Shown here piece by piece: positions 35,118 through 46,081 of a stretch of DNA of 64,000 nucleotides. The notes below the pieces were generated by a model that saw only the letters and a list, made by a program, of their open reading frames with translations, was not told where the DNA came from and made no database searches. The stretch comes from Escherichia coli. Lineage in GTDB: Bacteria; Pseudomonadota; Gammaproteobacteria; Enterobacterales; Enterobacteriaceae. The position numbers were made by a program, and so were the translations under genes. The first letter of the stretch is position 1; each line of letters opens with the position of its first letter. The stretch lies in assembly GCF_048403405.1 (NCBI RefSeq), contig NZ_CP183129.1; one strand, written 5' to 3'.

Positions 35118-36971
35118 TTATGATGATGCCGGTGCATTTATCTCCAGCACCAGACTTTCTATCTCAACGCCATACGCTGCATTTTTGGTAATATCCGTCA
35201 GCGTCAGCGCATTCAGCCCCAGTGTCAGACTGTCTTTTATGACCTGGAATGCCGGGCCAGCCACTCCATTCAGTTTCGGAGTAACCGTGGCACTGCCGGC
35301 GGTGAACACCAGCTCCAGCGTCTGCCAGTCGTTACTGTAATTCCCGAACTCGCCCAACTTTGTGTTTCCTGCTTTCTTGTGATGCATCAGATTCAGTTTG
35401 CCGTCTGTGGTCTGGGTGAAGAACGACATCAGGAACGGGTTACCAGTCCCGGTCATCGCCACGACGTCAGGTAACGCTACATCGGTATACAGATAAATTC
35501 CCAGACCGAACTGATTGTTGGTCAGTGCGCCTGACAGTCGAAACTTACAGCTCAGTCTGCCACCCCGTGTCAGCAGGGAGACTGCGTCATCCACCGGGCG
35601 CGTCAGGGACCAGGCTTTATTGCTCTGCTTGGTGATCTTAAATACACCATCTGACAACTGAATTCCGCCATTCTTAATGCTCCAGCCCTGCGCAGCAGCG
35701 TCTCCGGCTGTCGGCAACAGGGAGATTGTGCGTATGGATGCATCTTCAGACGGCCCCGATGGCGTGTCGCCGCCGGGCGAGAGTTTGATTTCCGGTGCCT
35801 TACCACTAATGAAGGCTAAGGTGCGACCGGCTACGTTCAGAATAGCAGTTGCCATACGATCGGGAATAATGCCACGACGCGCCCATGAGCTGAAATGCGT
35901 CGGGCGATTTGATGATACCCAGTTTTTGTTCGTTCGGGATGCCGAACCGTAATAACCAGACCCGACAATATCAGGATCTTCTGACGGGTTGTTTGTCGGT
36001 GTATTAACTCCGCTACCATCGGTCATAAAGGGAACAAAATAAATCTGCTGGGATTCTTTACCTTTATATGCACCATATACCACTTCATATTGCGTACCGT
36101 GTTCTTGTTTCCACGCGTATGTCGTGTCGCCACAAATCCAGGGGACTGATGCCGGACTTCCACCGTGACACTGCGCTGCCAGCCCGGCAAGGTCAGCACG
36201 GAACTGCTGTACCATTGCAAGAAATGCTGCTGGCTGCTGGGCGTAACTGGCATTCGTCATATCGAATTCCCCCTGCATCCAGCATATCGCCAGCAAAACG
36301 TTTTTCGGGTTTTTCTGCAATGCTGCCTTCGTGCGGAAAAGCAGATCCTGATATAACGGCTTACCCACTCCCCAGCGAGCCGAATCCTGACTGGCTCCCG
36401 TGGACTCGCTGAATGTCCCCTCCGTGCCCTGGGTGAATGCCGAACCACCACGACAGCATGGTACCAGCAGGATCCCCGCATTATTAGGGATATACGGAAG
36501 CAGTTTTTTGGCAATATGTAAGCCCTGTCCGACACAGCCGTACTGCCCTTTGCTCAGGTCAGCCCGGGGATGGTTAATCGTACTCATATCCTGAACATCA
36601 TGCAGACAATGGTCAGCAGGAATGATGTCGTTAAATACGCATACTTCACCACCGGGAGTCACTGTGTTACGACGGGCCAGTTGCTTAATGCGCGGATGGG
36701 GCGCATCGTATGAATCCGGAAGCGGAAGCCCTTCACCGTAAGCCATGGCATTGGATTGCCCGGCCAGTACGATGACGTAGTACCACTCCGGCTCAGTTGC
36801 ACCACTGACGACCACATCACCTTCTGCTGCAATCGCCTGCATCAGGGTATAAGGGGTTATGGCCACCGGACTACCAAACGGCTGCCAGCCCTCCTTCAGT
36901 TTTTGTGTCAGTCGTTTCGCAAGGTCTGACGGCGATGCCGCCCTGACCACGTCATAGTGTTTAAATGCCAT
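35118..36971 (-). CDS. nanS: Prophage sialate O-acetylesterase NanS-p-like (SGNH hydrolase)
   Basis: 617 aa; SGNH block I VLAGQSNAMAYG; sits upstream of the lysis genes as in Stx-type phages. Confidence 0.75.
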   Translation of the reverse strand: MAFKHYDVVRAASPSDLAKRLTQKLKEGWQPFGSPVAITPYTLMQAIAAEGDVVVSGATEPEWYYVIVLAGQSNAMAYGEGLPLPDSYDAPHPRIKQLARRNTVTPGGEVCVFNDIIPADHCLHDVQDMSTINHPRADLSKGQYGCVGQGLHIAKKLLPYIPNNAGILLVPCCRGGSAFTQGTEGTFSESTGASQDSARWGVGKPLYQDLLFRTKAALQKNPKNVLLAICWMQGEFDMTNASYAQQPAAFLAMVQQFRADLAGLAAQCHGGSPASVPWICGDTTYAWKQEHGTQYEVVYGAYKGKESQQIYFVPFMTDGSGVNTPTNNPSEDPDIVGSGYYGSASRTNKNWVSSNRPTHFSSWARRGIIPDRMATAILNVAGRTLAFISGKAPEIKLSPGGDTPSGPSEDASIRTISLLPTAGDAAAQGWSIKNGGIQLSDGVFKITKQSNKAWSLTRPVDDAVSLLTRGGRLSCKFRLSGALTNNQFGLGIYLYTDVALPDVVAMTGTGNPFLMSFFTQTTDGKLNLMHHKKAGNTKLGEFGNYSNDWQTLELVFTAGSATVTPKLNGVAGPAFQVIKDSLTLGLNALTLTDITKNAAYGVEIESLVLEINAPASS

Positions 36972-37199
36972 GAATCCTCCCGGGCGGGATAATGTTGTGA
37001 GTCAGATAAGGAGCAGGCTGAAGTCCGGAAGTTACAGGACAATGGCAGAAGGGAGACTACAGCCCGCAATTCGAAAAAGACCGCGCAGTTGCGCAGAGTG
37101 ATTACTATGGGGTATTATTCGCCAGCTGAAATATTACTTCACGTTTTATTGTTTATTCCTTGCCGCCCGCGTCTCCCAGCGCGGGCTTTTTTTGTCCAT

Positions 37200-37440
37200 A
37201 AGAAAGCCCCTCCGGAGAGGGGCTAAAGCCGCGTATCTGTATCATCATGCACATGGTGCCGGGTGCCTCCCGGTGAGTTCAGCCCGGTGCCACTAAACCC
37301 GCGTCATTCTCGTTTTGATAATCAGAGATTATACCGTCACCAGTCGCCCCTCCGCTCAGGGGGATTCACCATGCGAAATTTTTTTAACAAATGCCCAGTC
37401 TGACAGGCAACTGTCAACTTACTGAATTGTGAGCAACATA
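37200..37440. repeat. Structured repeat copy 1 (~240 bp) in the tRNA-to-nanS spacer
   Basis: Shares blocks aaagcccctccggagaggggct, catggtgccgggtgcctcccggtga, gcccctccgc.cagggggattcaccatgc, ctgaattgtgag with copy 2. Confidence 0.75.
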
Positions 37441-37685
37441 GCATTTAACGGGGAACCTGTTTTCTGCAGTAAAAAGGCCCACCGGAGCGGATGGGCCTGG
37501 AAGGATAGCGGTCATGTGATGCCGGTTTCCCGGTAACTCAGCACCGGTATCTGAGTCAACGTTTTCTCTACTGGGTCATTTCCGATACGCCCTGCCTGCT
37601 GACAGGCTTTCATCACATCTGAAAATATAGCACCCTGACTGATACTGTAGTACCTAAGGTTCCAGAAACTGTGATGTATCCGGCA

Positions 37686-37905
37686 CAGAAAAGCCCCTCC
37701 GGAGAGGGGCTGGAGAGTGGCGCTATGTGCCATTGCATGGTGCCGGGTGCCTCCCGGTGAATTCAGTACCAGCACCTGAATCCGCGATTATCCCATATAC
37801 CTACTCGCTGATTGCCCCTCCGCACAGGGGGATTCACCATGCCAGTTTCTTTTAACAAACTCCCCGCAAACCAGACAACAGTCAACCGCCTGAATTGTGA
37901 GACAT
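37686..37905. repeat. Structured repeat copy 2 (~220 bp)
   Basis: Paralogous to 37200-37440 with the same conserved hairpins. Confidence 0.75.
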
Positions 37906-37946
37906 TTAAAAAAAAGCCCGCAAAAGCGAGCCAGGGAAAATAAGTG

Positions 37947-38023
37947 TGGCGCGTTGTACTGGATTCGAACCAGTGACCGATTGCTTAGAAGGCAATTGCT
38001 CTGTCCGGCTGAGCTAACAACGC
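37947..38023 (-). tRNA. argO: tRNA-Arg (anticodon TCT)
   Basis: Clean cloverleaf read by hand: acceptor gcgttgt/acaacgc, D-stem gctc/gagc, anticodon loop cttctaa, T-loop ttcgaat, 3' CCA encoded. Confidence 0.85.
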
Positions 38024-38036
38024 AGGATACAGATAA

Positions 38037-38113
38037 TGGACCGCCTTCGGGGACCCGAACTCCGCGCAACCAGCTTCGAAGGCTGGCGCTCTTTCCTGAT
38101 GAGCTAATGGCGG
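38037..38113 (-). tRNA. tRNA-like gene, possibly tRNA-Arg (anticodon TCG), imperfect stems
   Basis: Cloverleaf can be drawn (anticodon loop cttcgaa) but acceptor and T stems each have a mismatch and the T-loop lacks the usual A58. Confidence 0.5.
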
Positions 38114-38120
38114 TATGTGA

Positions 38121-38196
38121 TGGTGGCCCTTGCTGGATTTGAACCAGCGACCTGGCGATTATGAGTCGCTCGCTCTCACCACTGAGCTAAAGGGCC
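38121..38196 (-). tRNA. ileZ: tRNA-Ile2-type (anticodon CAT)
   Basis: ggccctttagctcagtggtgagagc...ctcataa...ggttcaaatccagcaagggccacca; closely resembles ileX-type tRNA. Confidence 0.85.
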
Positions 38197-38245
38197 GGAA
38201 GCAGAATAATAATGGTGCGTAATTAATTCTGCAATCTCATCCGTT

Positions 38246-38572
38246 TCAAACGATTAAATCCTGAACTTCCCTGACTGTCTGCTCAAAACGTCCGGTCTCC
38301 AGTTCAACGCCAATCGCACGACGCCCGAGCGCCAGTGCCGCTTTTACCGTTGAACCTGAGCCCATAAAAAAATCTGCAACCAGGTCTCCCGGACGACTGC
38401 TTGCGCTGATTATCTGCTGCAGCATTTCTGCCGGTTTTTCGCACGGATGTTTCCCGGGATAGAACTGCACCGGTTTATGCGTCCAGACATCGGTATACGG
38501 CACCTGCGCTGTCACGCCAAAATACCGCCGCAGTCGGCATTCACAACCACAAGCGTGTTTAACGTACTGCAC
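38246..38572 (-). pseudogene. 3' remnant of a beta-class N6/N4 DNA methyltransferase gene
   Basis: 108 aa ORF holds only the C-terminal SAM-binding motif (DLVADFFMGSGSTVKAA...IGVE); no DPPY-containing N-terminal part and no room for it upstream. Confidence 0.65.
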
Positions 38573-38682
38573 AGCTTTTCAGACATAAAAAGGCCGCCTG
38601 ATAGCAGCCTTTTCACATTAAAATTAAGTTTTTCTTTACTCTGTAGTATGGGAAATTAGCATTCCCTACTGGGTTTATACAA

Positions 38683-39426
38683 CTAATCTGACGTCACACG
38701 CACCATTATACTTACTAAAGAAAAGTCATCATCAGGTCCGGCTCTCTCTATACGACGCAAAATACCATTAGAAAACTTCTGACTATTACTCATAGTATTT
38801 GATGTAAATCTGGGGCGTTTTTCCCAAACGTTATGAACTCCATCAGACATGATACACAGATGATACAACCCGTTAATACCAGGCAAATCTTTCCACGGGA
38901 TAAAATCACAGTCGTATTCCATATCAACATTTGAGGCTATGGCAGTCGTTAAGATATTTTTTCCCGGTTTATTCTTCAAATCTCTGGGTTTAAAAATATT
39001 CTGATCAATTAACATCTGATGTCTGGTATCGTCCTTCGTCAATTGATATGCTTTCTTTTCTCCAATGCAATACAAGCGACAATCACCAATATGACCAATA
39101 ATAATTCCGCTATCACAAACATAACAAAAGGTAAGTGTAGTAGCAGCTTTATCGAACTCATCATTAACTTCAGCTAACGACATAACTTTTCGCTTAACTT
39201 CAGCAAATACATTCGGAACTGCATCAAAAGATAAACTTGTCAATGCTGAAAGTTCAGCGATTGCCATGGATGAAGCATAACTGGCACCAGAGTATGAACC
39301 TACACCATCAGCTACGGCAAATAAGATGCCGTCTCCTACAATTTTTGGAGGAAGCAATGAATCTTCGTTGACCCTACCTGGTTCTTTTGGATACGAGAAT
39401 GATGAAGTCGCTATCAGCTGAATCAT
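38683..39426 (-). CDS. PP2C-family (PPM) Ser/Thr protein phosphatase
   Basis: 247 aa; PPM motifs NEDS, AVADGVGS, GDCRLY, IMSDGVHNV, DDDFSLV; AAGGAG RBS; AT-rich. Confidence 0.8.
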   Translation of the reverse strand: MIQLIATSSFSYPKEPGRVNEDSLLPPKIVGDGILFAVADGVGSYSGASYASSMAIAELSALTSLSFDAVPNVFAEVKRKVMSLAEVNDEFDKAATTLTFCYVCDSGIIIGHIGDCRLYCIGEKKAYQLTKDDTRHQMLIDQNIFKPRDLKNKPGKNILTTAIASNVDMEYDCDFIPWKDLPGINGLYHLCIMSDGVHNVWEKRPRFTSNTMSNSQKFSNGILRRIERAGPDDDFSLVSIMVRVTSD

Positions 39427-39529
39427 GACTCACTCCTTAAAAAAGAATGCGCAAAATCAAACGCCACATCATCTATTGTCTGATATCTATCATCTTTATC
39501 CATCCTTGTGCACTTAGCTATGATAGGCT

Positions 39530-40186
39530 TTATTTTTTATCATCTAAATTTAAGTCTTCAATTAACCGTCCCACAGCATAAACATCAGTCTTAACTGAAT
39601 ACTCTGCATTATATAAAATCTCGGGAGCCATATATCTTGTACTTCCCATACGGGTACCGATCTCGGTCAATTTAGTGGTATCCCCTTCGGGATTCGTATC
39701 TTTTACCAGACCAAAATCAGACACCTTGTATGTTCCGTCGCTAAATCGCAAAACATTAAAGGGTTTTATATCTCTGTGTAAATAGCCTTTGGCATGGATG
39801 TAAGCTACACCATCTAATACCATTTTCACTATTGAAATTTTTTGATCTGTTGTAAGAAGGTTGTTCGTTATTTCGTGCTCAAGATCACATTCTGCTTTAT
39901 CCATAATGAACCATGGATTCTCAACAAACAAATCGCACAAATAAATAGGAACAATATTGCTATGTACGCAATGTGATTGATACACAACCTCCCTTTTAAA
40001 ACGCCTTCTAAACTGCTCTATTTGCGCCAAAAGCTCTGGTTTTTCGGGTGCTAAAACCTTTCTAGCATAATCCCCGCATTCACCTTTATTGAGGTTGTAA
40101 ACCTTAACGTGTTCAACAAAGCCAAATGCCCCTCTTCCAATCAACTGAATTCGTTTTATAAAGTAATTACCGTGCTGTTCTTCCAT
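39530..40186 (-). CDS. Hanks-type Ser/Thr protein kinase (compact, ~219 aa)
   Basis: G-loop GRGAFGFV, Lys in YARKVL, catalytic loop HRDIKPFN, SDFG, MAPE, TDVYAVG; start set at MEEQ with GGTGAG RBS (track ORF extends to 40261); AT-rich. Confidence 0.8.
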   Translation of the reverse strand: MEEQHGNYFIKRIQLIGRGAFGFVEHVKVYNLNKGECGDYARKVLAPEKPELLAQIEQFRRRFKREVVYQSHCVHSNIVPIYLCDLFVENPWFIMDKAECDLEHEITNNLLTTDQKISIVKMVLDGVAYIHAKGYLHRDIKPFNVLRFSDGTYKVSDFGLVKDTNPEGDTTKLTEIGTRMGSTRYMAPEILYNAEYSVKTDVYAVGRLIEDLNLDDKK

Positions 40187-40260
40187 TAAGCTCACCGACC
40201 TAAATTGTAACAATATCCATATATTACAACTACAGATAAAAAGGTCCACAGAGTTAAGCA

Positions 40261-40290
40261 AAAAACCCGCACATTTGAGCGGGTTTATAC
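40261..40290 (-). terminator. tR'-like intrinsic terminator downstream of the late promoter
   Basis: On the late strand cccgctcaaatgtgcggg followed by TTTTTT. Confidence 0.65.
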
Positions 40291-40321
40291 ACTTTACAGC
40301 AATATATCACATTTACATAAA

Positions 40322-40350
40322 ATATATGCTATCTAATTGACTTTTGCAAT
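40322..40350 (-). promoter_or_regulatory. Late promoter pR'-like
   Basis: Late strand -35 TTGCAA, 17 bp spacer, -10 TATATT, about 50 nt upstream of the terminator, overlapping the Q-like gene 3' end. Confidence 0.55.
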
Positions 40351-41028
40351 ATCTCGCTGCAAAAATGCCGCTTTTTGTTGAGATCTCCTTTTCACAGTGC
40401 AAATCAGAGATTCGGTATCGAGGTTCATAAAAATGTCGAGTATTTCACGCCAGTAGCTCACATAATTGTGGCTCCAGTTGTCAGGCTTAATCCCACACAG
40501 ACGGGCAAGCTCCTGTTGCTGGTAGATATCATGTCCTATAACCCATCTCCTGACATCCTGTGCAGCCAGCCAGATTAATTTTTTCAGGCGTTCCTGTGTC
40601 TTCCCTGCAATTTTCCTGGTACCAGAGTGAGTCTTAAATTCTGTCCATGCCCACTGCGTTATCGCGATCTGATACTCCCAGCAAGTATTTCCGCTGTAAC
40701 ACCACAACAACCAGGCTTTATGATGTTCTTCAAGAGACAAAACAGCCCGCCGCCATGATGATGTAGAAAAAGCAACCTGACTGACCAGAGGAATTGACGT
40801 CCCCTTCGCCAGCGATTGTTTTCCCGGGATTGGTGGATTATCCCGCGTTATCATTTTTCCGGTCACTTCATCGCGGTACCGGATTTTTTTACGCCTGTAA
40901 CGCCCTGTATCGAACATGGCATTCTCCTGCCAGGCTTCAAGCTGACCTTTTGTTGCCCCACTCAAATCAGCGGTGGCGATAATGAGCTGCTCACGCACAA
41001 ACTGTAAATACTGGTTATTCATGCGCAC
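40333..41028 (-). CDS. Putative late-gene antiterminator (Q-like by position)
   Basis: 231 aa ORF directly upstream of the pR'/tR' unit and downstream of rusA. Confidence 0.45.
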   Translation of the reverse strand: MRMNNQYLQFVREQLIIATADLSGATKGQLEAWQENAMFDTGRYRRKKIRYRDEVTGKMITRDNPPIPGKQSLAKGTSIPLVSQVAFSTSSWRRAVLSLEEHHKAWLLWCYSGNTCWEYQIAITQWAWTEFKTHSGTRKIAGKTQERLKKLIWLAAQDVRRWVIGHDIYQQQELARLCGIKPDNWSHNYVSYWREILDIFMNLDTESLICTVKRRSQQKAAFLQRDIAKVN

Positions 41029-41378
41029 TCCAGTTCTGTGATTTTTATCCCCAGCCGCCCACCAGGAACGAGCTGACCGCGCACAATATTGATTTCATCA
41101 AACTGCTCGTCGTCTATAAGTAGTCCGGCATGCGTCAGCGCATCCAGTGGTGCCTTCAGGATATTGTCCAGGTCGCGGCGGCGCTTATCCGGTGGCTCTG
41201 CAATCACCTTTATCGCCAGCCTTCCGGACAGGCTTAATTTCAGCCGCTGCTGGCGAACAATAAGCGCCACAGCCCGGCGATAACGCTTTCCCTCCTCCGA
41301 GATAAAATATGTGCTGCCACGGCGTCGCCAGTAAGTGTTCACCGTCGGCGGGTAAGGTAAAACCAAATCTATGAGCAT
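41019..41378 (-). CDS. rusA: Holliday junction resolvase RusA
   Basis: 119 aa; ...PPDKRRRDLDNILKAPLDALTHAGLLIDDEQ... RusA signature. Confidence 0.85.
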   Translation of the reverse strand: MLIDLVLPYPPTVNTYWRRRGSTYFISEEGKRYRRAVALIVRQQRLKLSLSGRLAIKVIAEPPDKRRRDLDNILKAPLDALTHAGLLIDDEQFDEINIVRGQLVPGGRLGIKITELECA

Positions 41379-41390
41379 CAGTCACCTCTT

Positions 41391-42437
41391 TTACCCAAGC
41401 ACGCCAGTTGCAAAGGCGTGATCAAGAAAACGAAAAATTAAATCAACCTGAGAACCATGCTTTTCTTCGAACGCCAGAGGATCCGCATGAAGCTCGTTGT
41501 GATGCTCCCGACACAGCGGTAGCGTGAAAATATCGTGAGATTTTGTCCCCATTCCGCCCTGACCATGACCAATCAGGTGATGGGGATCGTCGGCTGGCTT
41601 ACCACAACACGCACACGGCTGTGTCTTCACCCAGCGTGTGTATTTCTCGTTAACCCAGCGGCGACGTTTAGGTCGTTTCATGAAAGATTCCGGAGACTCA
41701 GGATCAACGGCAATGCTGACCACCGTCTCTTCCTGTGGCGGGTTTTGCTGGTGGGCGTGAGGCAGCGGCGCAAGATTTTTTGTGCGCTGCTTCAGTATGC
41801 TGGTGGCGGTCTGCTCTCCCGGTACGATGTCGCTTTCACGGTACATTGAGCGGATTTTTTCCGCACGCAACCCCAGCGAACGACGTAATACCGCTTCCGG
41901 TAGCGCGTCCGCCACCTGATTGCGGACCGCCCACCAGGATAATTCAGCCAGCGATAATTCCCGTTCCTGCGAGCCATTCATTGCATGGCGTATGACGTCA
42001 ATCATCCATGCAGACAGGTTTTGGTGAGCAAGTTGCCCGAGTGATTCGGAGGTCTGGTCGCGCAGCTGGTTGTCGCAGTGCCAGCACAACACCATTGCGC
42101 CGGTACCATAACGGTGAATGACGGTTTCACTGTGGTGATAATCGCCGTGTGGCCACTGGCAGGATTTAACATGGCGCAGTAACCAATCAGACAATGCGCC
42201 AGCGCCACCAGCAGCACGAATCACTCGTTCGTCGCTGAAAAATGGCAGTAATGATTTATCCTCCGCCAGCGGCTGGCGAACGGCAGGAACGACCCCGGAC
42301 GGCAGATTACGCATGCTTTTCGGTTCCGGCTCCACCAGTACCCGGGTATTGTGGAATACCGGCATGGATTCACGGCCCGGCTTAACGATCACCAGCCCGA
42401 GTTCCGGTACCAGAACAGGTCGAAGTAATACCCGCAC
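41391..42437 (-). CDS. DUF968/YdfU-like protein with C-terminal HNH-like zinc motif
   Basis: 348 aa; C-terminal CACCGKPADDPHHLIGHGQGGMGTKSHDIFTLPLCREHHNELH. Confidence 0.6.
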   Translation of the reverse strand: MRVLLRPVLVPELGLVIVKPGRESMPVFHNTRVLVEPEPKSMRNLPSGVVPAVRQPLAEDKSLLPFFSDERVIRAAGGAGALSDWLLRHVKSCQWPHGDYHHSETVIHRYGTGAMVLCWHCDNQLRDQTSESLGQLAHQNLSAWMIDVIRHAMNGSQERELSLAELSWWAVRNQVADALPEAVLRRSLGLRAEKIRSMYRESDIVPGEQTATSILKQRTKNLAPLPHAHQQNPPQEETVVSIAVDPESPESFMKRPKRRRWVNEKYTRWVKTQPCACCGKPADDPHHLIGHGQGGMGTKSHDIFTLPLCREHHNELHADPLAFEEKHGSQVDLIFRFLDHAFATGVLG

Positions 42438-42438
42438 G

Positions 42439-42723
42439 TTACCTCCAGATGCGTTGCTGGAATGTGCGGGACGGACGCGGTGGGCGTTCGGAATAAGGGA
42501 GTCTGACGTAGATTATCCAGTGACGATAATCGAGGGTGAGGGCTTTCCTAAACTCATATCCACGTCTGCGGTAGTTATGAATCAGCCATTCGGCCTGTTC
42601 TTCAGTACAGGGATCGTGCTGATACCAGTCATATTTGAATGCGTGAGAACGCCACCCGTGCCTGCTGGCAAAGGCAGAATCAGAATTGCGAAATTTGAAA
42701 TTATGCGCCATTGTCATCTCCAA
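42439..42723 (-). CDS. Hypothetical phage protein
   Basis: 94 aa ORF abutting the DUF968 gene. Confidence 0.4.
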   Translation of the reverse strand: MEMTMAHNFKFRNSDSAFASRHGWRSHAFKYDWYQHDPCTEEQAEWLIHNYRRRGYEFRKALTLDYRHWIIYVRLPYSERPPRPSRTFQQRIWR

Positions 42724-42770
42724 TGGCGCTGCAGGTTGCCAGTTGTTCAGGCTGGCTCACGTATTATAAC

Positions 42771-42992
42771 TTATTCCCGAACTACCTTGAAACCGAGTCT
42801 TTCCAAGTATTCAATGAATGCCTCAACAGATAACACTACATGATCATCAGGAATTAACGCTGTGTAGGTAATACCCCCATTCTCAACGCGCACAGCATAG
42901 AGGCCATCTTCACTAAAAATTTCACGTAATTCTTCGATTTTCATCAACAGAATCCTTCCAGATAAATAGCACTCCCCCTGTTCGGGGTCCAT
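42771..42992 (-). CDS. Hypothetical phage protein
   Basis: 73 aa ORF. Confidence 0.4.
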   Translation of the reverse strand: MDPEQGECYLSGRILLMKIEELREIFSEDGLYAVRVENGGITYTALIPDDHVVLSVEAFIEYLERLGFKVVRE

Positions 42993-43074
42993 CCCTCTTC
43001 TCCCTGCGCGCTACTTAAGTATTTTTGATTCTATTCTGGCACCGTCCAAAACTTCAAACACGTTGAAAATAAAA

Positions 43075-43096
43075 ACAAAAAACCCGCCGAAGCGGG
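43075..43096 (-). terminator. Intrinsic terminator after the XRE-peptidase gene
   Basis: Late strand cccgcttcggcggg followed by TTTTTTGTTTTT; same hairpin as at 44912-44936. Confidence 0.7.
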
Positions 43097-43101
43097 TATA
43101 C

Positions 43102-44208
43102 TCAAACAATCTGGAAAATATTTCTTGGATTTGTAATAGGTCTGTTGATGGAGAACAACTCACGAATTAAATCTTGGCTCAAGCCAGTTTTCATAAGAAT
43201 TCTTAGCCAGGTTGCATCATCCAGCATTTCAATCGCCTCGGCCAGCATGCCGGGTTCTTCAGGGCGCAAAAGTTCATCACCAGGTTCAACTCTCGTATAC
43301 CCTCTGGAATTAAGATGCATATAGCCAGTTCTTGCCTGTTCCTGGGTCAATAAGCCTAATGCGCTGGCTCGATAAATACACATTTTAAGGCTGATTTTCC
43401 ATCTAAGTTTAAATTCAACCAGAGCATTCCAGTCGAATTGCTTACCTCGTATTCGTGGAAATTCTTTAATGAAAGATAACCTGGGAACTAATAAGGCGCT
43501 CGAAAAGTGATCGGCTTGTGATTCCGTAAGTTTATCACCTGTCGTTATGCCCTCATGCATTACTAAATGCCCTAATTCATGACCTAAATCAGAGCGAAAT
43601 CTACATATGCTTTTTTTAACATTGTTCCTGATGATAACAGGCCTGTTATTGTGAACAGTAAAAGCATCAACACGATCATCGACTCCCGTAACATGCGCAA
43701 CGATTACCCCTAAACTCTCCGCCAATTTAACCATTGATGATATAGGGCCAAGACCTAAATTCCAGGCACGGCGACAATCTTCTGCCACTCGCTCAATATC
43801 ATTCGGAGTAAGTAATTCAGCCCCTGGGTGCTCCGGTATGTTAACGTCAGGAAATTCGATTTCACCTTCAACAGCAGAAATTATAATATTAAGAATCTCA
43901 GCCCTGGCCAATACACTATTAGTCAGCGTTTGAGTCCTGGACTTCTTACTCCGAAAATGGCAGACATCACTTTCCAGAGCGTATTTTCGTTCAGTAAAAA
44001 GAAAACTGGACTTAATCATAAGCGCTGAAGATATTAACTCAAGACATTGCTCCGATGGCCTGCACCCCTTCTCCAGTTTGCTAACGAATTGCTTTGTCTT
44101 GCCAATTTTTTCGGCTAACTCTTCACAAGAAAGCCCAACAGCCATTCTCGCTAGTTTGAGCTTATCACCCCGATACTCAGTGAAGTTATTCACCTGATGT
44201 TCCATCAC
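43102..44208 (-). CDS. XRE-family HTH regulator fused to ImmA/IrrE-type (COG2856) zinc metallopeptidase
   Basis: 368 aa; N-terminal HTH (LKLARMAVGLSCEELAEKIGKTKQFVSKLEKG), C-terminal HEXXH (HELGHLVMH); AT-rich. Confidence 0.75.
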   Translation of the reverse strand: MMEHQVNNFTEYRGDKLKLARMAVGLSCEELAEKIGKTKQFVSKLEKGCRPSEQCLELISSALMIKSSFLFTERKYALESDVCHFRSKKSRTQTLTNSVLARAEILNIIISAVEGEIEFPDVNIPEHPGAELLTPNDIERVAEDCRRAWNLGLGPISSMVKLAESLGVIVAHVTGVDDRVDAFTVHNNRPVIIRNNVKKSICRFRSDLGHELGHLVMHEGITTGDKLTESQADHFSSALLVPRLSFIKEFPRIRGKQFDWNALVEFKLRWKISLKMCIYRASALGLLTQEQARTGYMHLNSRGYTRVEPGDELLRPEEPGMLAEAIEMLDDATWLRILMKTGLSQDLIRELFSINRPITNPRNIFQIV

Positions 44209-44836
44209 TGCTCACATCCAAATCTTTATCCTTCGTACGCCGACGAAGAGGCACCTTATTAATCTCCGCTTCGTCAGGGAGTGTGTTATAATCAAGAGGC
44301 ATAAGCGGCATCGATGCTGTAGATTGATGAGAAACTATACTAATCTGAGCACCATAAGTATTAAATCCAACAAGAGCTACCTCCCAACGAGGCAGTGTGG
44401 ACTCTAATTCACCATCGCCCTCTTCGGATAAAAAAGGCTCAGCTATGACTCGCCATGTAATATCTTGCTCAGCCTCAACATCACCAAACAATGAGAGCTG
44501 CTCATACTCTACTTTATTTCGACGCAGACGATGTTTCTTTTTGGGGTTATTAATGCAATCTTTGGTAAATTGTAGCGGAACTTTATTTAAAGCAACTACA
44601 TAGTCCAACCCCTTGGAAATCATCTCAAGGCCAGGAATTGCATCTTCATTTTGAATAAGATGATTTCTGACCCAATCATAAGCCCTTACACCTTCAGACC
44701 AGTTGCTGTCTAATGCGTGCTTATGATAGTACAGCTGCTCAAGTACGTTAGCGATCTCCGCCAACAAGTGGCGAACATAGTTTTCAGCAAGATAAGGTTG
44801 AAATTCCCAACAAGGAGCTAACTGATTTTCATTCAT
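44186..44836 (-). CDS. Uncharacterized protein (216 aa), upstream partner of the XRE-peptidase gene
   Basis: ORF overlaps the downstream gene by 23 nt; TTGACA -35 element upstream; no recognisable motif. Confidence 0.55.
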   Translation of the reverse strand: MNENQLAPCWEFQPYLAENYVRHLLAEIANVLEQLYYHKHALDSNWSEGVRAYDWVRNHLIQNEDAIPGLEMISKGLDYVVALNKVPLQFTKDCINNPKKKHRLRRNKVEYEQLSLFGDVEAEQDITWRVIAEPFLSEEGDGELESTLPRWEVALVGFNTYGAQISIVSHQSTASMPLMPLDYNTLPDEAEINKVPLRRRTKDKDLDVSSDGTSGE

Positions 44837-44911
44837 TTCAAGTTTCGCTTTTTTTAGAATTCGTAAACCACATATTTTCGCATTTTTCTATTTTTGTCAA
44901 CCAGACTAATG

Positions 44912-44936
44912 CAAAAACCCGCCGAAGCGGGTTAAG
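44912..44936 (-). terminator. Intrinsic terminator after hok
   Basis: cccgcttcggcggg hairpin followed by T-run on the late strand. Confidence 0.7.
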
Positions 44937-45001
44937 TGCGGGTGCGTTGAGGATGCCTGGCACATCAGAGGTGGCGGGAGATTACTCCCCCGCCGGGTCT
45001 C

Positions 45002-45157
45002 TTACTCCTCAGGTTCGTAAGCTGTGAAGACAGCGACCTCCGTCTGGCCGGTTCGGATTCGTACCTCGCAGAGGTCTTTCCTCGTTACCAGTGCCGTCAC
45101 AATGACGGTTAAACAGATGACGATCAGGGCGATTAACATCGCCTTTTGCTGCTTCAT
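45002..45157 (-). CDS. hokD: Hok/Gef-family type I toxin (HokD/RelF-like, 51 aa)
   Basis: MKQQKAMLIALIVICLTVIVTALVTRKDLCEVRIRTGQTEVAVFTAYEPEE matches HokD; track ORF has an in-frame upstream extension. Confidence 0.85.
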   Translation of the reverse strand: MKQQKAMLIALIVICLTVIVTALVTRKDLCEVRIRTGQTEVAVFTAYEPEE

Positions 45158-45394
45158 AGCCTGCTTCCCCTTGCCTTTCGGCACGTAAGAGGCTAACCTA
45201 CATTTGTGAGACATAGATTGGGCCTCAGATTAATGTTAAGCGTCTTGCAGGACGCGAAATGTTAACTGGGGCTTTTCTCTATCTGCCTTTCAGTGTTCAT
45301 GCCTGAGACAGATAGCCTCAAGCACCCGCAGCCATTCTACTTAACTCACGTCACCTCGCCAATATGAAATCAATCAGAAAGGTGATCCATAAAA

Positions 45395-46081
45395 TCACTC
45401 CTTCTCTTCTTTTCCGTAGTGGAGTTGGCCAATTTTGATAAGAGGGCGTCCCTGAGATTTGCGGTGTAGATTGGTATCGCGCAGAGAATACACACAGCCA
45501 CAATATTCCTGCTGATAGAATTTTTCGCGCTTGCTGATTTCAATCATACGGGACGAGCCGCCCTGCTTGCGCCAGTTATAATCCCAGTACACCATACCCG
45601 GATAATGCGCAACAGCTCGCCGCCCACACTCGTTAACCTGCTGCATATTTTTCCAGCGTGAAATGCCCAGTGAACTGCTGATCACACTGAAACCATTTTC
45701 AGCAGCGTACAACGCTGTCCGCTCAAAACGCATGTCAAAACACATGGTACAACGGATCCCCCTCTCAGGCTCCCATTCCATTCCTTTGGCACGTTCAAAC
45801 CAGTTGTCGGTGTCGTAATCAGCATCGATAAACGGCACGCCGTGTTGTTCAGCAAAGCGAATATTTTCATCCTTACGAATTAAATACTCTTTCTGAGGAT
45901 GAATGTTCGGGTTGTAGAAAAAGATGGTGTAGTCGATTCCCGAGGCCTGAAGCGCCTCCATCACTTCACCGGAACATGGAGCACAGCAAGAGTGCAGTAG
46001 TAGTTTGTTTGCCCCGTTTGGGAGCTCCAATTTAGGCCGTTTGAAATCAGCAATAGTCATAAATATTTTTATTGGGGTCAT
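45395..46081 (-). CDS. QueH-like (DUF208) putative epoxyqueuosine reductase
   Basis: Conserved Cys motifs [12 protein letters not shown] and YCGCVYS; start ambiguous (M at 46081 or 46060); family call from memory. Confidence 0.55.

Follow-up and report, generated by a model that had tools for sequence, protein, structure and literature searches.

A probable phage 82-type late-gene control unit with a short leader in a lambdoid prophage of Escherichia coli

The DNA between the Q antiterminator gene and a Ser/Thr kinase gene in this E. coli lambdoid prophage very probably forms the late-gene control unit, made up of the promoter pR', a Q-utilisation site and the terminator tR', and paired with a Q protein of the phage 82 family. 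This conclusion draws on the elements present in the sequence, on their precise spacing, on which of their positions relatives conserve and on the family to which Q belongs. The unit is an unannotated member of the well-characterised phage 82-type pR'-qut-tR' kind, and its sole distinction is a short leader, common to phage 434 and phiES15. Promoter, pause element, terminator and the surrounding genes are all on the minus strand of the window, by which we mean the whole 64,000-nucleotide stretch of DNA that was analysed; the coordinates are collected in Table 1. A preliminary description of the window had proposed a TTGCAA-17-TATATT promoter overlapping the 3' end of the Q gene, and the consensus scan and the coordinates confirm it, adding the strand, which had been left unnamed.

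The Q protein matches PF06323 in a Pfam search with full-length coverage of the profile (E 5.6e-84). That entry represents the Q82 family; there are three families of Q proteins, unrelated to one another (PMC9388147, PMC7171158). Alignment with phage 82 Q gives 67% identity across 229 residues, gap-free, with the differences located mostly in the C-terminal third. No solved relative of Q was detectable by sequence similarity in a PDB sequence search. The mechanical list of open reading frames begins the Q frame at a GTG at 41028 (40333-41028), whereas the annotated start is the ATG at 41022; RefSeq annotates the identical sequence of E. coli 118UI as a 229-aa antitermination protein Q with this ATG start. 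The rusA stop codon and the Q start codon share an ATGA overlap at 41019-41022 (minus strand), which suggests translational coupling from rusA to Q. At the 3' end, the Q stop codon is a TAG at 40335..40333 (minus strand), and its position therefore puts the -35 hexamer of pR' inside the last Q codons and the -10 hexamer just past the stop.

Table 1. Coordinates of the elements of the predicted control unit and of the adjacent genes (all on the minus strand of the window).
Feature	Position	Strand	Basis and remarks
Q antiterminator gene	40333..41022	-	229 aa, phage 82 family; 690-nt CDS in RefSeq
-35 hexamer of pR', TTGCAA	40349..40344	-	Consensus scan; 4/6 to consensus; in the last Q codons (I-A-K)
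17-nt spacer, candidate Q-binding element (QBE)	40343..40327	-	AAGTCAATTAGATAGCA; includes the Q stop codon
-10 hexamer of pR', TATATT	40326..40321	-	Consensus scan; 5/6 to consensus
Predicted transcription start, AAA	40314..40312	-	+1 at 40314, 7 nt past the -10 hexamer
Predicted sigma70-dependent pause element, extended -10-like, TGaTATATT	40309..40301	-	TG at +6/+7, TATATT at +9..+14
GCT triplet	40300..40298	-	+15..+17; counterpart of the G/C-rich 'discriminator' GCC of 82 pR'
Predicted promoter-proximal pause site, TGT	40291..40289	-	+24..+26; predicted from 82 pR' and the alignment
Intrinsic terminator tR'	40286..40260	-	Terminator scan; stem AAACCCGC/GCGGGTTT, loop tcaaatgt, T6 at 40265..40260
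Predicted terminated leader RNA, ~55 nt	40314..40260	-	Predicted from +1 and the T run at +50..+55
Ser/Thr kinase gene, first past tR'	39530-40186	-	Pfam Pkinase; RefSeq annotation
PP2C phosphatase gene	38683-39426	-	Pfam PP2C_2; RefSeq annotation

The spacer that separates the two hexamers is the candidate site for Q. In lambdoid pR' promoters the QBE sits between -35 and -10, and that of 82 pR' lies within -31..+30 (PMC4914094). Spacer positions -29, -28, -26 and -23 to -21 are invariant in the relatives and partly coding; the 5' half of the spacer as a whole is conserved but also coding, and constraint on the last Q codons could explain much of the conservation of both the -35 hexamer and the spacer. 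Phage 82 differs from this prophage both in the sequence of the spacer and in the C-terminal third of its Q, so that the placing of the Q-binding site here can only be approximate. Q-responsiveness of a pR' is a property of the pause element and the Q-binding site in the spacer together.

For comparison, the layout of phage 82 was rebuilt from the published positions (PMC5001585) and from the sequence of PhiR47_2, which has the closest relative of Q82 (97% identity). The 82-like relatives read AAATCTGATATTTTGCCGATTTTGT and PhiR47_2 reads AAATCTGATATTTTGCCAATGTTGT, with GCC at +15-17 and T at +25 in both. It is on this that the predicted start depends: +1 was placed at the AAA because the 82-like relatives then show these bases at the positions reported for 82 pR' (PMC5001585). 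The phage 82 record itself (X92588) ends TTGCAAAACTGGATTAA, so that its -35 hexamer occupies the same place in the last Q codons.

A second element, missed in the preliminary description, follows shortly after the predicted start and consists of TGaTATATT and the adjoining GCT. The element that induces the pause in 82 pR' resembles a -10 element and has an extended -10, the GCC discriminator at +15-17 helps to set the pause site, and insertions at +9 shift all that the pause needs; positions +18-25 are AT-rich, and polymerase pauses at +25/26, where the base at +25 is U (PMC5001585). The present unit reads AAATGTGATATATTGCTGTAAAGTGTAT, in which the TG at +6/7, the TATATT at +9-14 and the GCT at +15-17 are followed by an AT-rich stretch ending GTGT. 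Its TATATT is nearer to consensus than the corresponding element of phage 82. By analogy, polymerase would be expected to pause at about +24 to +26. The alignment shows one extra base ahead of the conserved TGTAT in this unit, and the base at +25 is G, which is disfavoured at the pause end (PMC5001585); the pause may therefore be shifted or weaker, and the extra base and this G together leave its exact site uncertain.

The terminator that follows has a hairpin (40286..40263) of eight pairs, five of them G-C, closed by an 8-nt loop, and it begins 34 nt beyond the -10 hexamer. When the predicted leader is folded as RNA, this hairpin is the centroid structure, at about -13 kcal/mol, and the fold has a z-score of -2.8 against shuffles. 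The strong intrinsic terminator that had been described about 50 nt downstream of the promoter thus holds up, as an 8-bp hairpin with a T6 run that ends about 55 nt past the predicted start. We infer that the ~55-nt leader is the counterpart of lambda 6S RNA.

The geometry of the unit recurs throughout the loci with which it was compared, namely 80 IMG/VR loci with close Q relatives, phage 434, eight further Q82-family phages and the partial record of phage 82. Each locus was anchored on its -35 hexamer, and the block from -35 to +28 was compared. The geometry is retained without gaps in 89 of these 90 Q82-family loci, among which Q identity ranges from 45 to 100% and 24 distinct blocks can be told apart. 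The sole misfit is Gifsy-1 (L082 1254-1500), in which the TTGCAA-17-TAnnnT / TGnTAnnnT geometry is absent after the Q82-family gene. The C-terminus of this Gifsy-1 gene product is divergent.

Conservation within the block is selective. The 24 distinct blocks from the 89 loci all have TTG.AA at the -35 hexamer, and their only invariant non-coding positions are -11A, -7T, -6T, +6T, +7G, +9T, +10A, +11T and +14T; positions -10, -9 and -8 of the -10 hexamer vary among the relatives, as do the remaining positions of both hexamers. Apart from -6T, the invariant set comprises two key -10 positions, the extended -10 TG and the key positions of the second -10-like hexamer. This is the pattern that would be expected under selection on sigma70 recognition, rather than from shared ancestry alone. 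At +15-17 the relatives have G in 21, C in 20 and C in 21 of the 24 blocks, respectively. Neither the sigma70 pause element nor its spacing varies among the Q82-family phages of Escherichia, Klebsiella, Enterobacter and Cronobacter.

Of 38 distinct variants, 37 have a G+C-rich hairpin and a T run past the pause region, with 17 distinct stems among them. These hairpins were detected in each sequence separately, because MAFFT misaligned the non-homologous hairpins of four short leaders and the RNAalifold covariation counts were uninformative. Leader length falls into three classes, with ends at about +53, +71 and +98. The short class, with a T run ending at +52 to +55, comprises this unit, another group of loci with the kinase (L052 and 13 others, 14 in all), phage 434 and phiES15; in the 82-like majority the run extends to +69 to +78, and in two Klebsiella phages to +98. 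In the alignment, the short class resembles an 82-type leader that lacks ~19-21 nt after the pause region and ahead of the hairpin.

Phage 82 thus provides the closest experimental reference, sharing with this unit the PF06323 Q family, the -35 TTGCAA in the last Q codons, the 17-nt spacer, the AAA start, the extended -10-like element at +6..+14 and the G/C-rich triplet at +15-17, followed by an intrinsic terminator. The differences are that the pause element is TATATT here and TATTTT in phage 82, that the triplet is GCT rather than GCC, that G replaces U at +25, and that the leader is ~20 nt shorter than in 82-like loci, the T run ending at +55 compared with about +70-78. Phage 434 (OL657226) is 78% identical in DNA across the unit and has a homologous Q end, promoter, pause element and short leader; its T run ends at +54, its terminator stem is again AAACCCGC, and its record annotates the homologous hairpin as a terminator. 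It departs from the present unit in its -10 hexamer (TATACT), its pause element (TGgTATGTT) and the GTA at +15-17, and in having membrane-protein genes next in place of the kinase and PP2C genes. In Cronobacter phage phiES15, a Q82-family gene (45% identity) is followed by a similarly compact promoter-pause-terminator unit, with its T run ending at +52, and then by kinase and PP2C phosphatase genes (43% identity each) that lead directly into the lysis genes. This phage infects another host genus, and it differs in its -35 (TTGAAA), its -10 (CAGAAT), its terminator stem and the longer intergenic region before its kinase gene.

More distant comparisons place the unit among lambdoid late promoters in general. 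The lambda pR'-6S RNA-tR' region follows the logic proposed here, with a constitutive promoter just past Q, a QBE in the spacer and, in the initial transcribed region, a pause element of the -10 type, and yields a short terminated RNA as well as processive Q antitermination (PMC4914094, PMC9388147). In lambda, however, Q belongs to the unrelated family PF03589, polymerase pauses at +16/17 and the leader has a length of 193 nt (PMC4914094), and the lambda unit is a functional analogue of this one, not a homologue. Stx phages have in common with this prophage a cargo locus between tR' and the tRNA and lysis genes, a short terminated leader in lysogens (PMC7547250; predicted here) and the downstream order of tRNA, esterase and lysis genes, the cargo here being a kinase and a PP2C phosphatase instead of Shiga toxin.

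Homology with phage 82 allows the start site, pausing, Q binding and read-through to be combined in the following proposed scheme. Sigma70 holoenzyme would initiate at the AAA at 40314 from TTGCAA-17-TATATT, and the retained sigma70 would bind again at TGaTATATT, +6..+14; with the help of the G/C-rich segment at +15-17, the complex would be held in a scrunched pause at about +24 to +26. When Q is absent, polymerase would escape, halt at the hairpin and U6 and free the ~55-nt leader RNA. Once Q has accumulated, it would bind the spacer DNA between -35 and -10 and engage the paused complex, probably assisted by NusA; Q-dependent, NusA-stimulated read-through of terminators is known for phage 82 (PMC4914094, PMC9388147). 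Q would then ride with the polymerase, making it resistant to tR' and to later terminators, so that the kinase and PP2C genes, the tRNAs and the esterase, lysis and terminase genes would be transcribed.

The released leader could also have a function of its own. That it additionally serves as a trans-acting small RNA of the lysogen, as StxS does in Stx phages, would be compatible with its place in late-gene control but is unlikely. pR' promoters are constitutive, short terminated RNAs can become Hfq-binding sRNAs (PMC7547250), and the leader ends in the hairpin and U6 tail typical of such RNAs. An Rfam scan of 37000-41500, however, assigned the leader to no family at threshold, its only hits being to Leu/Trp leaders below threshold. 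Hits of that kind are typical for any hairpin with a T run. Moreover, conservation from +1 to +28 is explained by a pause element acting at the DNA level, and the 5' part of the leader shows no complementarity above chance to the start regions of the kinase and PP2C genes in duplex prediction (35% and 26% of shuffles, respectively, pair equally well). We regard as distinctly improbable the further proposal that an StxS-like constitutive leader acts on the host or on the kinase and phosphatase, the short leader of phage 434, phiES15 and this prophage having been selected rather than arising by neutral deletion.

On the one strand, Q and the pR'-tR' unit are followed by the Ser/Thr kinase gene, the PP2C phosphatase gene, a methylase fragment, three tRNAs and a SASA-type esterase gene; beyond the esterase, the identical prophage of E. 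coli 118UI has holin, lysozyme, Rz-type lysis protein and terminase small subunit genes on the same strand. Such an order is normal for a lambdoid late operon, and the cargo locus occupies the place of stx in Stx phages. Besides 118UI, the E. coli strains VR50, ML35 and BEN2908 carry this prophage. The PF06323 Q, the 82-like layout and the lysis and terminase genes on the same strand all support the Q-type late-control arrangement put forward in the preliminary description. With this unit, late transcription of the prophage is predicted to begin near 40314 (minus strand), and the kinase/PP2C pair therefore comes first behind tR', in the position of stx in Stx phages. In phiES15 the corresponding pair (L092 948-2467) likewise comprises the first genes after the Q82-like gene and its compact pR'-tR', and this shared position, with 43% identity for each protein, makes the module look old and conserved. 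The practical value of the assignment is in the timing of kinase and phosphatase production; otherwise the unit is a textbook element, of interest mainly for comparison.

Synteny with phiES15 also supports the earlier proposal that late transcription, including that of the kinase and phosphatase genes, begins at pR', which may not be their only promoter. The 70 nt between tR' and the kinase ATG at 40186 contain no sigma70 promoter matching at least 9 of 12 positions in the consensus scan; a TGGACC-16-TAATAT match (8/12) can be picked out there by eye. A further kinase promoter within this interval is possible, and a defence-type kinase would be expected to act in lysogens. The kinase matches the PADLOC defence-kinase models mad6, PD-T4-6 and Stk2, and the PP2C protein matches none. 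From this resemblance to anti-phage defence kinases, which are expected to be expressed in lysogens, it might be argued that the promoter described here is a moron promoter that chiefly serves the kinase and phosphatase in the lysogen, with the hairpin as a leaky attenuator instead of a Q-controlled terminator; the short leader indeed accompanies the kinase cassette here, in the L052 group and in phiES15. We consider this very unlikely, since phage 434 has the short leader without a kinase, and the promoter, pause element and terminator are also found after Q82-type genes that are followed by tRNAs, membrane proteins, a holin or no cargo. Sequences past the terminator differ widely among the relatives (kinase, tRNA genes, membrane-protein genes, holin, other ORFs), and retention of the promoter, pause element and terminator despite this shows that the unit belongs to Q and not to the cassette.

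Several other features were seen in the region downstream of tR'. A 10-bp hairpin or palindrome, UUGUAAUAUA ... UAUUGUUACAA, lies at 40204-40229 (minus strand), ~20 nt upstream of the kinase start. The second kinase-carrying group (L052 and 13 others) has T>G on one of its arms and G>C on the other (U.G to G-C), changes that would fit either an RNA structure or an operator. The methylase fragment is the C-terminal part of an N6/N4 DNA methyltransferase (38246-38572, minus strand) and is annotated as a pseudogene in the identical prophage of E. coli 118UI, in which an IS3 element follows the tRNAs. The three tRNA genes (37947-38196, minus strand) have the anticodons CAT, TCG and TCT and are downstream of the cargo, as in Stx phages; the CAT tRNA is called Met by ARAGORN and Ile by RefSeq. 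Between the tRNAs and the SASA esterase gene are two full copies (37194-37403 and 37681-37871) and one weak copy (37469-37642) of the Rfam sRNA family STnc100, all on the minus strand. Each copy ends in a terminator-like hairpin, which late transcription would need to read through.

Taken singly, the hexamer and hairpin matches of the unit are near chance and not significant. In the region 36000-46000, 19 promoter-like sites were found compared with 15.4 +/- 4.5 expected, and 19 terminator-like sites compared with 10 +/- 3.1; a 9/12 match to consensus, that of the whole promoter, is a level as frequent as chance in this region. With hexamer pairs at the chance rate and the -35 hexamer in coding sequence, the hairpin and T run could be supposed merely to end the early-right (nin/rusA/Q) operon, the hexamers having arisen by chance and no late promoter being present. 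This is highly improbable. The invariant non-coding positions include the key ones of two elements a fixed distance apart, the -10 hexamer and a second, -10-like element of the extended type, and the overall layout is that of the experimentally defined 82 pR'. A lambdoid late operon, furthermore, requires a promoter past Q. A search of the 64-kb window for the composite TTGMAA-N17-YANNNT-N11-TGNTANNNT gives a single hit (40301..40349, minus strand), and 100 shuffles give none. It is this composite pattern and the comparison with relatives, not the single matches, that support a function for the unit.

Hardly any weight can be given to the idea that the relevant signal is instead a paQ-type antisense promoter that reads back into Q from the plus strand. 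TTGACT-18-AAAAAT preceded by TG is indeed present at 40337-40366 (+), and at the equivalent place the record of phage 434 has an annotated paQ -35 and CII site. However, the plus-strand -10 is not conserved (ATTTTT here is CTTTTC in relatives), the CII repeat TTGC-N6-TTGC of 434 is TTGC-N6-TCGC here, and the early region of this prophage is of the YdaS/YdaT type, not the lambda type; this candidate was rejected for want of conservation in the relatives.

The early region also contains, on the minus strand, a gene for a protein with HTH and M78 peptidase domains (43102-44208) that matches the PADLOC model RmrA (E 6e-105), and beside it a match to RmrT (44186-44836; E 5e-25). The two (43102-44836) are a candidate anti-phage defence pair.
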